A DNA stretch of 64,000 nt, from NCBI RefSeq assembly GCF_965197445.1, contig NZ_CBDANE010000003.1, forward strand, positions 43,604 through 107,603, read 5' to 3'. The notes under the pieces are model-generated. The model was given only the letters and a program-made list of their open reading frames with translations, ran no database searches and was not told where the DNA came from. The DNA is from Candidatus Palauibacter sp. GTDB taxonomy: Bacteria > Gemmatimonadota > Gemmatimonadetes > Palauibacterales > Palauibacteraceae. This document shows positions 7,227 to 9,638 of the stretch, one piece after another. The position numbers and the translations under genes are program-made. The stretch's first letter is position 1. Every line of letters begins with the position of its first letter.

Positions 7227-9638
7227 ATGAGCATCTACGAAACCCTCGGCCGAATCGACGCCGAGCTGGCCCTTGGGCACGGCGAGGAGCCGCAACGAGC
7301 CCTCACCGACCTCATCCGGAATATGAGCCGACCGGTGTTGGAAGAATGGCGCGTCGATCTCCAGGCACGGATCGATAGATTCCAGCGGAAGCGTCACCTC
7401 GAACTCCAGCAGCTCCTTGACGAGAGAACGGGCGTTCAGCCCGCCAACTACGCTGAGCGCACCGATGCCATGGTGAGAGAACGGCCCGCCGTGGCGGAAG
7501 ACCTCTATTCCGAAGTTGACGCTGCGGATAGCGACTTCAACGACGCACTGAGAACGCTCGGCGAGAAACACATCTTTCAGTGGGCGACCTCATACACCCA
7601 ATCTCTAAGCCATCACTTCAACTGCTACCTTCCACTACTTCAGTCGGAGTTGGCCGGTGAAGCCGCTCATTCCATCCAGCGGCAACTGGAGGAACACACG
7701 CGAGCGATCTTCACCCAGGGGTACAAGTACGGCCAGGAACAGGGCCTAACCCAAGAGATCTTGACGCAAAAGTCGATCGGGGGACTGGCCAGCCTGCTGG
7801 ACCTGCCGCTCGAGTACTACTTGCAGCGTGCGAACTACAGCCACGCTCGCGAGGAAACCGTGTCGCTTCGATCCCTACTGTCGGCCGGCAGCAGGGGTAT
7901 TCTGCGAGGGTACACTTCCCTCCGCCTCGGAGACATGGACGGTGCAACCCTCCTAGGGAGATTCCCCAACCGCTGGGCGTACCAACTCGCCTTTCTTTCC
8001 GCCGACGCCATCGAAGACATCGTCACTCAGCTGCCCGATGGTTCCTTGAAGGCCGGTCTCGAGACTGCGGCGTTGCCGCTCGCCGATTGTCTCGATTCCC
8101 TCATGTCTCGACCGCGGGAAACATATTTCCCGCTCCCGCTCTTCGGTCAGTTCTCCTGGGAGCACCGACGCTTGGACATCGGCGTGCGTTCACCCTCTGC
8201 GTGGGGATCCGACCGGCTGATCTACGCGCGTGCTCACCTTGCTGAAGCTTTTGTCTCGGAACGCGATCTGGACGAAGCCGCCGCTCGCCGCCTTGCCCTC
8301 GTTCTGGCGCCCCTAAAGCCGGATGTTGCCCACCGCGTCCGAAGCAGTGACCAGTTCGGAAGGATTGTGATTGAAGTCGGTGATGCGGATCGATCCGAGG
8401 TGGCTGAGCGCGCCACGGAGTTGCTTGCCAGACGTATCTACAAGCTGCGCAGTAAGATCGAGGGCGCGAGATCGATCACCTACAACGTTGCACGCGATTT
8501 TCCACTCCATATACCGGGGAAGTCGCCATTCTACCACGTTCGGCGCACAAGCGTCCGTGACGTGCTGGCTCGATTCGACCGCAAGAACGGCGTTCGGCTC
8601 TGGTGCAGCGTACGCCGCAGCGGCAAGACGACGGCCTGCTTCGACCTCGACGCCACGCCGGGAGGATCGGTGATTGTTTCGCAGACGTGCGGAACCGAGC
8701 AGACAACCAATGGACGGGTCTTCTACGATGGGGTCCGTAGGGCGATCGAATCTAGAACGCAGCTGAGAGCGACTTTCGTCAACTCGGTCGTCCGCGATTG
8801 CGCGCCGCTCTCCGTAGATCCGGCGAATCGTACGGTGCTGGTCATCGACGAATACGAGACTCTTTTCGGCCATCTTGGCTCCGCCGCGGAATCCGAACCC
8901 GCGATCCGCTATACGGTGGCCCAGCCGCTCCTAAACCAGATGGTCGAGTTCGCACGCGACAACCTGCTGGTGTTACTGGGTCAGCAGCCGGGCGCGCATT
9001 TCATCCTGATGGACCAGAATCAACTCGCGCCCTACGTGAAGCAGGATCCGTTCCCCTTGTTCGAACACCACTTGAAGACCGGAGAGTTCTCCCAACTCGT
9101 GGATAAGGTGCTGAGGGATCAGATTAGCGTCGATACAGGCTTTGTCGACGCTCTCCACACGGAGACGGCCGGCCATCCCTTCTTGACCGTCAACGTCCTC
9201 TGTGGGTTGGTGGATTGGCTGATCGAGCAGAAGCGTCCGGCGAGGGGGATCACCCTCGACGATGGAGACTTCGCGCAATTCCGGGCTGAAAAACTCGGAC
9301 TTGAACAGGTGAGCCTGGGCCGCGACTACGACTTCTTCCGTGAGACGGCGAAGGCGGCGATGGCCGAGACCAGCTACCGTCACAACCCTTGGCTGTACAC
9401 TGCTTACTGGCTCGTGCGACAAATCGCCCAGGCTGATTCGGAGAGATTCGCCATTCCGCGCGACGACTTGCCCGATGTGATGAAGAAGATTCCCGCTCCC
9501 GGCGTACTGCCGGAGATGAGCGAGATGTTGCGTACCGCGACACAGGCTAATTTCCTGTCGTATACGGACACAGCCGTCTTTGTGAAGGTGCGGACTCTGG
9601 GCCGACTCGCCGCATCGGTTCGCCCGGCATTGGCGTAG
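7227..9638 (+). CDS. uncharacterised P-loop NTPase (STAND / ORC-Cdc6 / Arch_ATPase-like core) with a long unknown N-terminal region
   Basis: Walker A is VRRSGKTT (aa 462-469, nt 8610-8633). Walker B is VLVIDEYE (aa 537-544, nt 8835-8858). A post-ATPase motif HTETAGHPFLT (aa 644-654) resembles the GxP helix of STAND/archaeal ATPases. The first ~450 aa are helical with no motif I know. GC is lower than the flanks. Confidence 0.7.
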   Translation: MSIYETLGRIDAELALGHGEEPQRALTDLIRNMSRPVLEEWRVDLQARIDRFQRKRHLELQQLLDERTGVQPANYAERTDAMVRERPAVAEDLYSEVDAADSDFNDALRTLGEKHIFQWATSYTQSLSHHFNCYLPLLQSELAGEAAHSIQRQLEEHTRAIFTQGYKYGQEQGLTQEILTQKSIGGLASLLDLPLEYYLQRANYSHAREETVSLRSLLSAGSRGILRGYTSLRLGDMDGATLLGRFPNRWAYQLAFLSADAIEDIVTQLPDGSLKAGLETAALPLADCLDSLMSRPRETYFPLPLFGQFSWEHRRLDIGVRSPSAWGSDRLIYARAHLAEAFVSERDLDEAAARRLALVLAPLKPDVAHRVRSSDQFGRIVIEVGDADRSEVAERATELLARRIYKLRSKIEGARSITYNVARDFPLHIPGKSPFYHVRRTSVRDVLARFDRKNGVRLWCSVRRSGKTTACFDLDATPGGSVIVSQTCGTEQTTNGRVFYDGVRRAIESRTQLRATFVNSVVRDCAPLSVDPANRTVLVIDEYETLFGHLGSAAESEPAIRYTVAQPLLNQMVEFARDNLLVLLGQQPGAHFILMDQNQLAPYVKQDPFPLFEHHLKTGEFSQLVDKVLRDQISVDTGFVDALHTETAGHPFLTVNVLCGLVDWLIEQKRPARGITLDDGDFAQFRAEKLGLEQVSLGRDYDFFRETAKAAMAETSYRHNPWLYTAYWLVRQIAQADSERFAIPRDDLPDVMKKIPAPGVLPEMSEMLRTATQANFLSYTDTAVFVKVRTLGRLAASVRPALA

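Follow-up and report, generated by a model that had tools for sequence, protein, structure and literature searches.

A mobile gene pair encoding a STAND/ORC-like P-loop NTPase and its partner protein in Candidatus Palauibacter

What does a large P-loop NTPase outside every annotated family do in the genome of a Candidatus Palauibacter sp., and does it act alone? The gene in question, hereafter A, is an open reading frame (ORF) of 803 codons with an ATG start, located at 7227..9638 on the forward strand of a 64,000-nucleotide (nt) stretch of contig NZ_CBDANE010000003.1, which as a whole is referred to here as the window. A preliminary description, made from the letters of the window, had marked A as a plausible defence or conflict-system ATPase carried as cargo of an insertion and linked to a 344-amino-acid (aa) protein encoded downstream, hereafter B. 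Our analysis establishes that A represents a real, conserved and unannotated protein family, that B is its obligate partner and that the A-B pair is itself the mobile unit. From its genomic context we read the pair as an NTP-dependent conflict module, serving in anti-phage or anti-plasmid defence or in superinfection exclusion, and we consider the chances of this reading to be evenly balanced.

A conserved NTPase family and its partner

A word-indexed search of 5.8 billion proteins returned 297 homologues of A, nearly all of about 800 aa, with 44-91% identity and 100% coverage of the query; none of them carried a Pfam domain, and their source names read only "hypothetical protein". An exhaustive phmmer search of 1.84 billion cluster representatives gave 295 clusters at 50% identity (251 with E<=1e-10), essentially all of them full-length family members, and no bridge to other families was found. 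These roughly 300 mostly full-length homologues, together with a ratio of nonsynonymous to synonymous substitution rates (dN/dS) of 0.03-0.31 on close pairs, identify A as a real gene.

The ORF, Walker A (VRRSGKTT, aa 462-469, nt 8610-8633), Walker B (VLVIDEYE, aa 537-544) and the segment HTETAGHPFLT (aa 644-654) lie exactly where the preliminary description placed them. Among 226 full-length members, S461, R464, S465, K467, D541, E542 and Y543 are strictly invariant, G649, H650 and P651 are present in 224-225, and G585 is invariant or nearly so. The P-loop reads S461-x-R-R-S-G-K467-T-T, invariant or near-invariant throughout, with Ser in place of the first Gly of the canonical Walker A. With a GxxxxGK[ST]-like Walker A and an hhhhDE Walker B, A falls among the P-loop NTPases and is probably of the ASCE/AAA+ kind, and its intact motifs predict an active-type enzyme. 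Conservation is not confined to the core, as N420, F425 and R440 in the linker before the ATPase are invariant, and W119, Y123, H157, R215 and S219 in the N-terminal half are invariant or nearly so.

The architecture of A was examined in an AlphaFold2 (AF2) model built from 41 homologues (mean predicted local distance difference test score, pLDDT, 77.9), with secondary structure assigned by DSSP (Table 1). The unusually late position of the ATPase, which had been pointed out before, holds: the predicted strand β1 and P-loop begin at about aa 455, about 430 aa precede the ATPase, and about 150 aa come after the GHP helix. The N-terminal region had been described as long and helical, and it is largely so, with a 68-aa module and a domain of about 200 aa, but it also contains a β-rich domain of about 80 aa and a disordered linker. 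In longer homologues (930-980 aa) the first module of about 65 aa (...F-x-P-K-R-R-R-x-L...) is duplicated in tandem with Pro-rich linkers; a fused enzymatic domain was considered for these proteins and rejected, the extensions being copies of that module. Within the core, helices at aa 498-509 and 517-525 come after the strand at aa 481-487, which in the model is suggestive of the helix-extension-helix/ISM insert that the ORC/Cdc6 clade has after strand 2. The order helix-helix-strand-strand at aa 745-786 is compatible with a C-terminal winged helix.

A search of the Protein Data Bank (PDB) by sequence gave no relative for the N-terminal half of A. The family profile over aa 18-152 (window 7278-7682) marginally matched PDB chains of Vipp1/PspA (ESCRT-III-like) at E 0.007-0.011; this was the sole PDB profile match, and we set it aside as probably a matter of coiled-coil composition.

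When the A model was compared with the PDB by Foldseek, it matched ORC1-5, the plant NLR protein RPP1, RuvB, RFC, PAB2304 and SSO1545 with E-values of 3e-3 to 1.5e-2, the best probabilities being those of PAB2304 (2qen, 0.98) and SSO1545 (2fna, 0.97), and matches to Cdc6 and, weakly, to TnsC were also obtained. A GxP motif, the mark of STAND proteins, stands after the NTPase core. Fold and motif thus support the STAND/ORC-like core that had been proposed for A, but curated profiles lend it no support beyond sub-threshold matches. Searched member by member against Pfam, 13 of 41 A proteins gave AAA_22 below threshold (best E 0.0011), two gave nSTAND1 (best E 0.03), and isolated sub-threshold matches to ORC-CDC6-like and BrxC_BrxD were seen; neither these 41 members against Pfam nor the PADLOC search matched a curated STAND, NACHT, NB-ARC or Avs profile at significance. 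The window protein itself had no AAA_22 match at E<=1.

In the window, B starts 4 nt past the stop codon of A, and the two genes are probably translationally coupled. A tblastn survey of the species genomes of GTDB showed that in 59 of 64 loci B follows A on the same strand, which bears out the suspected link between the two genes; the five A loci that remain are contig ends or truncated or degraded copies. The A-B gap is 5-170 nt in nearly all of the 59 loci, and four carry an interruption of 2-4 kb (L013, L025, L054 and L060). The 59 loci cover Gemmatimonadota, Acidobacteriota, Alpha- and Gammaproteobacteria, Binatia, Actinomycetota, Planctomycetota and Bacillota. Scans of their neighbours revealed no third gene universally linked to the pair. 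Across 51 loci, the identity of B follows that of A (Spearman 0.59-0.70).

The AF2 model of B is a confident one (pLDDT 93.2; predicted template modelling score, pTM, 0.87) and combines a five-stranded α/β domain with a helical bundle. Foldseek gave nothing better than E 0.04 in the PDB or 0.01 in BFVD, with faint echoes of AAA+ proteins, FtsH and the clamp loader delta subunit at TM-scores of about 0.15; as these are fold echoes only, we refrain from classing B as an inactive AAA+ protein. Profile searches of PDB, Pfam, PADLOC, NCBIfam and PHROGs were without significant match for B, and a profile-profile comparison of A with B showed no relation. When proteins resembling B were sought more widely by profile, beyond the pairing, only family members were returned, the sensitivity of this search being limited by a word-index prefilter. 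As modelled, the fold of B is novel or unassignable. In 51 diverse B sequences, W25, R54, S111, P116, W118, P120, R216 and H304 are invariant and R32, D67, D133, R272 and Y308 nearly so; such residues may outline an active site or else an interface.

Purifying selection acts on both genes. In 11 close pairs, dN/dS lay at 0.03-0.35 for every domain of A and B, and we therefore regard both as functional. The gradient was consistent, with typical values of about 0.09 for the ATPase half of A, 0.15 for its N-terminal half, 0.13 for the N-terminal domain of B and 0.23 for the C-terminal domain of B, which is the fastest among the domains. The window and its closest relative, another Candidatus Palauibacter sp. 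(L001), share 82-97% nt identity over the gene upstream, the whole of A and roughly the initial 350 nt of B; from about nt 10000 onward identity is about 55-64%, and the synonymous divergence (dS) is 2.4 against 0.3-0.6 elsewhere. The C-terminal bundle of B has therefore been replaced by a divergent allele via recombination. Family-wide hypervariability of this domain was considered and rejected, since mean pairwise identity is 0.46 in the N-terminal and 0.48 in the C-terminal domain; what is left is a modest rate gradient among close pairs and one clear allelic swap.

Movement of the pair

The preliminary description took A for cargo of an insertion. The insertion is confirmed by empty sites, but the pair is not the passenger of a larger element: the whole insertion is the 3.8 kb at about 7080-10877, and A-B is what moves. 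The GC content of this cassette is 0.61 against about 0.70 in the flanks (the region from 7 to 13 kb has about 61-66%). Three contigs recovered by a metagenome scan with the C-terminus of the upstream amidohydrolase lack A-B; there the amidohydrolase is followed by 16 nt, a TM2-domain gene and a mutase (L073), by an outer-membrane protein (OMP) gene, the TM2 gene and the mutase (L074) or directly by the mutase (L075). The cassette is bounded by two copies of a direct repeat of 141 nt, 92% identical to each other.

After B, the window continues with a 3' fragment of the TM2 gene and then a 3' fragment of the amidohydrolase gene, an order opposite to that seen in the empty sites, and the resident OMP...TM2 genes come next; the resident TM2 gene lies at 13132..14124 (minus strand), and the repeated stretch within it at 13147-13282. 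We infer from these permuted fragments that a circle carrying donor flanks was integrated by a single homologous crossover. The circle, with the composition amidohydrolase fragment, A, B and TM2 fragment, would have been cut out of a donor site and would have entered the window by a Campbell-type exchange within the 3' end of the amidohydrolase gene. No tRNA, integrase, Rfam RNA, sigma-70 consensus promoter, terminator or significant terminal hairpin was found in the cassette.

Elsewhere, target duplications of their own surround A-B, of 264 nt (97% identity) in L021, 340 nt (82%) in L017, 208 nt (84%) in L009 and 57 nt (93%) in L028. Terminal repeats borne by the element were considered as an explanation and rejected, because the flank repeats are local and differ from site to site.

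A second kind of movement is seen in enterobacteria. By tblastn, the pair was found on two conjugative IncFII/IncR plasmids of Klebsiella pneumoniae, between IS6 and IS110 insertion sequences, and a cluster look-up gave copies of more than 90% identity in K. pneumoniae, K. variicola, K. quasipneumoniae and Pectobacterium carotovorum, all named "hypothetical protein". A unit of 3.64 kb (L065 ~10621-14256), which starts some 150 nt ahead of A and extends some 80 nt beyond B, recurs with 96.5-99.9% identity in four contexts that are unrelated to one another: a conjugative plasmid of K. pneumoniae, the Pectobacterium chromosome amid metabolic genes, a K. variicola site adjoining a UmuC-like gene and a resolvase, and a K. 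variicola lambdoid prophage (lysogen GCA_001549975.1), where it lies between DnaT/lambda-P-like replication genes and DinI, LexA-like and lysis genes. The plasmid slot, bordered by the IncFII replication region on one side and an IS110 element on the other, is filled in a K. michiganensis plasmid (L083, NZ_CP029143.1 33031-36390) by other cargo, including a HEPN-domain protein, and is therefore a hotspot for variable cargo. The prophage slot is filled in Klebsiella phage Kp4865-4 (L084, 6918-10298) by a different cargo of 3.4 kb, for which searches gave hypothetical proteins without informative matches. Two adjacent hypothetical genes of this phage slot (275 and 259 aa) form a 1.8-kb unit present in 57 complete E. 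coli genomes, another uncharacterised two-gene module.

The ends of the 3.64-kb unit carry palindromes of the form GTCCGC(T)-N10-12-(A)GCGGAC, and the break in homology falls between the arms. Such palindromes delimit exchangeable cargo in Klebsiella plasmids, a prophage and a phage (L065 10613-10636 and ~14240-14265; L071 13468-13491; L072 9842-9865, ~13467-13490 and ~13510-13535; L083 ~2237-2262; L084 ~6950-6975). The hairpin at the left end folds significantly (z = -3.2), and one related site shows the compensatory change GTCTGC...GCAGAC. Similar palindromes bound unrelated cargo as well, and for this reason we regard them as a property of the hotspots and not of A-B. The two modes of cassette movement would be a Campbell-type crossover of a circle in the window and exchange at short palindromic sites within cargo hotspots in enterobacteria. 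Whatever the function of the pair, the locus offers a clean, datable example of the movement of a small cassette that carries no recombinase.

In all, A-B was found in 63 of about 185,000 GTDB species genomes (64 loci), scattered across at least seven bacterial phyla; sponge symbionts, soil actinomycetes and Klebsiella/Pectobacterium are among its carriers. The A proteins of a Binatia and a Vicinamibacterales genome (L019 and L021) share 72% identity, and those of two gammaproteobacterial orders (L050 and L057) 90%; these values indicate that transfer across phyla and across orders has been recent, for the most part among sponge-associated metagenome-assembled genomes. About nine of the 63 species copies are truncated (L010, L027, L045, L058 and L061) or interrupted, as expected of dispensable accessory genes, and in each of two genomes (OZ251506.1 and CBDCCO010000007.1) an intact copy is accompanied by a disrupted one. 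Five Vicinamibacterales species have it inserted between ileS and lspA, which in E. coli belong to one operon.

Some further features lie near the cassette. Compared with L001 and L074, the OMP β-barrel gene is duplicated in the window (10948..~11490 and a fragment at 12705..13040, repeats D3/D4), and a 401-aa β-propeller gene at 11487..12692 (minus strand) between the two copies marks a second local rearrangement. About 5.4 kb downstream of the cassette, a 442-aa ORF (16092-17420, plus strand) has, as read from its translation, an HNH-endonuclease-like C-terminus, CRFPGCGSRYTQAHHAVPWAEGGETTLDNLILLCRLHHRTVH. In a Longimicrobiales locus (L004), whose A is 50% identical to that of the window, the cassette abuts the 3' end of a TolB/amidohydrolase homologue (13495-14874, minus strand) in the opposite orientation; its position beside this gene in both genomes could be coincidence or reflect a preferred target.

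Table 1. Features of the A-B cassette and its junctions, in window coordinates (amino-acid positions within each protein).
Feature	Position (nt)	Strand	Basis
Left copy of 141-nt direct repeat: last ~135 nt and stop of resident TolB/amidohydrolase gene (3843..7079)	6945..7085	+	Repeat search; single copy in empty sites L073, L074
Cassette-borne upstream non-coding region, presumed promoter/ribosome-binding-site region of A	7080..7226	+	Absent from empty sites
Gene A: P-loop NTPase, 803 aa; family-specific N-terminal half, STAND/ORC-Cdc6-like AAA+ core, lid, winged-helix-like C-terminus	7227..9638	+	Homologue searches, AF2, Foldseek, dN/dS, conservation
A, aa 1-68: small helical module ending in basic F-x-K-R-R motif	7227..7430	+	AF2 (DSSP, pLDDT)
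A, about aa 69-89: disordered, hypervariable linker		+	Pairwise identity 0.17; AF2
A, aa 90-383: helical domain (90-293, pLDDT ~90) and small β-rich domain (304-383)	7494..8375	+	AF2; Pfam and PDB blank
A, aa 389-414: long helix		+	AF2
A, aa 416-480: best-conserved stretch (mean pairwise identity 0.73), with N420, F425, R440 and P-loop S461-T469	8472..8666	+	Alignment
A, ~aa 455-630: ATPase core		+	AF2
A, Walker B VLVIDEYE	8835..8858	+	D541, E542, Y543 invariant
A, aa 585-612: G585-Q-x-P588 after β4 (sensor-1 region), loop MDQNQLAPYV...FPLF	8979..9062	+	Conservation; low AF2 confidence
A, aa 637-700: helical lid with GHP motif		+	AF2
A, HTETAGHPFLT: GxP-type motif in lid/helical domain	9156..9188	+	G649, H650, P651 near-invariant; Foldseek to PAB2304, SSO1545
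A, aa 701-803: helical and winged-helix-like C-terminal domain (helices 745-753, 764-773; strands 777-779, 783-786)	9327..9635	+	DSSP of AF2 model
Gene B: 344 aa; α/β domain aa 1-137 (nt 9643-10053), helical bundle aa 149-343 (nt 10087-10671)	9643..10677	+	ORF, AF2, tblastn
Recombination breakpoint in B, about aa 120, domain boundary	9990..10010	+	Identity drop against L001, dS ~2.4
Displaced 3'-end fragment of TM2-domain gene, brought with cassette	10695..10829	+	Repeat search; blastn to L073 9308-9442, 78.5%
Inferred circle junction, TM2 fragment/amidohydrolase fragment; C11 tract 10842-10853	10830..10863	+	Permuted fragment order relative to L073
Right copy of 141-nt direct repeat: displaced pseudo-3' end of amidohydrolase gene (fragment 10864-11018)	10878..11018	+	Repeat search, alignment, empty-site comparison

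Possible functions of the pair

In the neighbourhoods of the pair, association with mobile elements is evident, and association with defence islands is only suggestive; the expectation that homologues would lie among such genes is thus borne out for mobile elements, but classic defence neighbours are sparse. The scan covered 208 well-coded ORFs within about 4 kb of the pair at 36 further loci (113 ORFs from non-actinomycetes and 95 from actinomycetes). Tyrosine integrases were the commonest recurrent neighbours overall: Phage_integrase accounted for seven of the 208 flanking ORFs, being the top family in non-actinomycetes (4/113) and second in actinomycetes (3/95) to NYN (five). There were two occurrences of AIPR and single ones of Tox-REase-2 and DUF4407. 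In one alphaproteobacterial locus, three integrases and several transposases make up an island together with a fragment of a PLD-type nuclease and an AAA_16 ATPase. Other immediate neighbours include ileS, lspA, RecQ, phosphoenolpyruvate (PEP)-synthase-like genes, TetR, MsrA, aspartate-semialdehyde dehydrogenase and methyltransferases.

A gene for a 488-aa NYN-domain protein lies directly after B, at a distance of 28-95 nt, in eight actinomycete loci (L031 13181-14644; also L038, L044, L046, L047, L048, L053 and L059). At the N-terminus of this protein stands the NYN (LabA-like) domain, accompanied by about 350 aa of no known type, and it is plausible that this RNase-type gene supplies an accessory effector in a lineage-specific three-gene variant. 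In two sponge-associated Gammaproteobacteria, a large PPDK_N/PEP-utilizers (PEP-synthase-like) gene comes after B (L043 3781-6231; L057 13581-16532), which may be plain synteny between relatives.

The conflict reading is drawn from several of these observations. First, the pair occupies a prophage moron slot and a plasmid hotspot that it has in common with HEPN cargo. Second, its neighbourhoods are rich in integrases, its spread is patchy and its copies decay frequently. Finally, the C-terminal domain of B is fast and recombining, and actinomycetes add the NYN gene. In such a module A could act as a nucleotide-driven switch or oligomeriser, probably working on nucleic acid through its putative winged helix, and B could be a sensor or adaptor, or else an effector of a new type, a role suggested by its being the fastest-evolving part and by a C-terminal bundle that recombination can swap.

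A number of findings weigh against a conflict function or against the fold assignment of A. Pfam, NCBIfam, PADLOC and PHROGs gave nothing for the window A at E<=1; PADLOC-DB 2.0 returned no catalogued defence protein, with no family at E<=1 for either window protein and only scattered single matches at E>=0.014 among 71 members; and, as the preliminary description had stated for the N-terminal region of A, no nuclease, protease, TIR, SIR2, transmembrane or pore effector is recognisable in A or B. Many loci lie amid ordinary metabolic genes, and few recognised defence genes are nearby. The pair was not found in sequenced-phage or IMG/VR collections or in complete E. coli genomes. The Foldseek matches of A have probabilities of 0.7-0.98 but E-values of only 3e-3 to 1e-1, none better than 3e-3, with low TM-scores, and pLDDT is below 50 in aa 416-480, which include the P-loop. 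The weakness of these E-values is due in part to the low pLDDT of that stretch and of the QNQLAPYV loop (aa 586-610, nt 8982-9056), where it is likewise below 50; these are the two best-conserved stretches of A, and they may gain order only once nucleotide or B is bound or an oligomer has formed.

A more specific version of the conflict reading, which we consider less likely than not, would make A-B a new family of anti-phage or anti-plasmid immunity, in which the ORC/STAND ATPase would sense through an N-terminal region found nowhere else and drive a partner of new fold. B would then be a new effector enzyme or a sensor and not a degenerate AAA+ protein, with S111, H304, R216 and R54 invariant and D67 and Y308 near-invariant. 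Were this the case, the pair would help determine, so far unseen, how susceptible a clinical pathogen, Klebsiella, is to phages and plasmids, and its carriage in Klebsiella and Pectobacterium makes the matter easily testable and relevant to phage therapy and plasmid ecology. If A-B is a defence system, it adds a family missed by PADLOC, Pfam, NCBIfam and PHROGs, and its mechanism would probably be new and not a variation on a known effector, because neither the N-terminal region of A nor its partner has detectable relatives. The RefSeq accessions of the Klebsiella pair are mentioned in no paper that we found, and the literature on STAND, BREX and iSTAND systems describes analogous logic but not the A-B family.

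Among the alternatives, the one that survives best is that A-B is an accessory module without a role in conflict, in which A would be an ATP-dependent DNA or chromatin factor, such as an ORC/Cdc6-like loader or a repair or regulatory switch, with B as its adaptor, kept for the benefit of the host and spread by ordinary horizontal transfer. The ORC/Cdc6-like fold, the winged-helix-like C-terminus and the missing effector domain agree with this, as do the many loci amid metabolic genes, the strong purifying selection, the vertical retention at one site in several Vicinamibacterales and Palauibacter species, and the loci that adjoin RecQ in one case and a UmuC-like polymerase with SRAP in another. 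We nevertheless think it unlikely, since the patchiness (63 of about 185,000), the prophage moron slot, the plasmid hotspot, the pseudogenised copies, the actinomycete NYN gene and the swapped, fast C-terminal domain of B all fit conflict genes better.

It is also conceivable, but improbable, that the pair is a selfish element, with A as a target selector of the TnsC/IstB/TniB-like AAA+ kind and B as a recombinase of a new type or an addiction or partition function. The cassette does move alone, without an internal integrase or transposase, and the sub-threshold AAA_22 and weak TnsC matches point the same way, as do the sharp boundaries, the short palindromes at both enterobacterial ends, the compensatory change in a related site and the long target duplications at independent sites. 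Such ends, however, differ in structure between lineages, those of the window have no significant hairpin, the flank repeats are local, and the palindromes bound unrelated cargo too. Homologous recombination of a circle by the host accounts fully for the junctions in the window; there is one copy per genome, or rarely two with one degraded; and neither a motif of DDE, tyrosine, serine or HUH recombinases nor a fold match to them was found in B, A likewise being without a Pfam or fold match of this kind.

We consider it very improbable that A-B is a minimal relative of BREX, with A as a BrxC/BrxD-like ORC-clade ATPase and B as a BrxB-like inactive STAND protein, in a system stripped of methyltransferase and PglZ. 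In its favour, A has an ORC/Cdc6-like ATPase followed by a probable winged helix-turn-helix (wHTH), as in BrxC (PMC12839542), the five-stranded α/β domain of B lacks Walker motifs, has helices after strand 2 and gives the faint AAA+ and clamp-loader-delta echoes, and one member of the family matches BrxC_BrxD of Pfam at E 0.2. On the other hand, no member matches BrxB, BrxC or BrxD at E<=0.1 (PADLOC, Pfam), no PglX, PglZ or BrxA was present in any neighbourhood examined, B has a large C-terminal helical bundle that is absent from BrxB (PMC12839542), and the profiles of A and B are unrelated.

That the two genes are a housekeeping pair of the host lineage is scarcely credible: synteny within Palauibacter (L001, L002 and L023) and strong purifying selection would accord with it, but empty sites in close relatives effectively refute it, foreign GC content, rarity and patchiness and carriage by plasmid and prophage count against it, and the profile searches (Pfam and PADLOC, both proposed at the outset as checks, NCBIfam and PHROGs) placed A confidently in no housekeeping family.

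Comparison with known systems

The nearest structural matches, PAB2304 and SSO1545 (Pfam ATPase_2/Arch_ATPase type), share with A an RRxGKT-style P-loop, a DE Walker B and a G-x-P lid motif, and they have a winged helix after the ATPase, as the model suggests for A. A differs from them in giving no profile match to their Pfam family, in its roughly 430 extra N-terminal residues and in always having its partner B. We know of no function assigned to PAB2304 or SSO1545.

The Avs/AVAST antiviral STAND NTPases resemble A in being P-loop NTPases of the STAND/ORC neighbourhood, a likeness to which the RPP1 fold match adds, and in their mobile, patchy distribution. The preliminary description had likened A to an Avs/NLR arrangement, an analogy that is architecturally weak: A has no large C-terminal repeat sensor (TPR, WD40 or LRR) and no known N-terminal effector, its C-terminus is short and winged-helix-like, as in ORC/Cdc6 or BrxC, it needs a separate partner, and it has no Avs match in PADLOC. 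RADAR (RdrA/RdrB), Septu (PtuA/PtuB) and PARIS (AriA/AriB) likewise pair a large ATPase with a smaller protein and are found on mobile elements. Their partners, however, are a deaminase, an HNH nuclease or a Toprim nuclease, whereas B has no recognisable catalytic fold; PADLOC gave no match for A-B, and no RADAR structure was among the Foldseek matches.

ORC/Cdc6 and BrxC/BrxD have an AAA+ core, a lid and a winged helix, a layout that the model suggests for A as well. The ATPase is C-terminal in A and N-terminal in those proteins, and no significant ORC-CDC6-like or BrxC_BrxD profile match was obtained. The pair stands outside BREX as such, having no methyltransferase, PglZ or BrxA nearby and a B that BrxB models do not match. 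By analogy, the pairing of BrxC with BrxB nonetheless offers a possible model for A-B. BrxC is an active ATPase of the ORC/Cdc6 clade that carries a wHTH and works with an inactive P-loop partner, BrxB (PMC12839542), and this combination of an ORC-clade ATPase with a non-catalytic, P-loop-like protein would be the closest mechanistic counterpart of A-B among the systems compared here.

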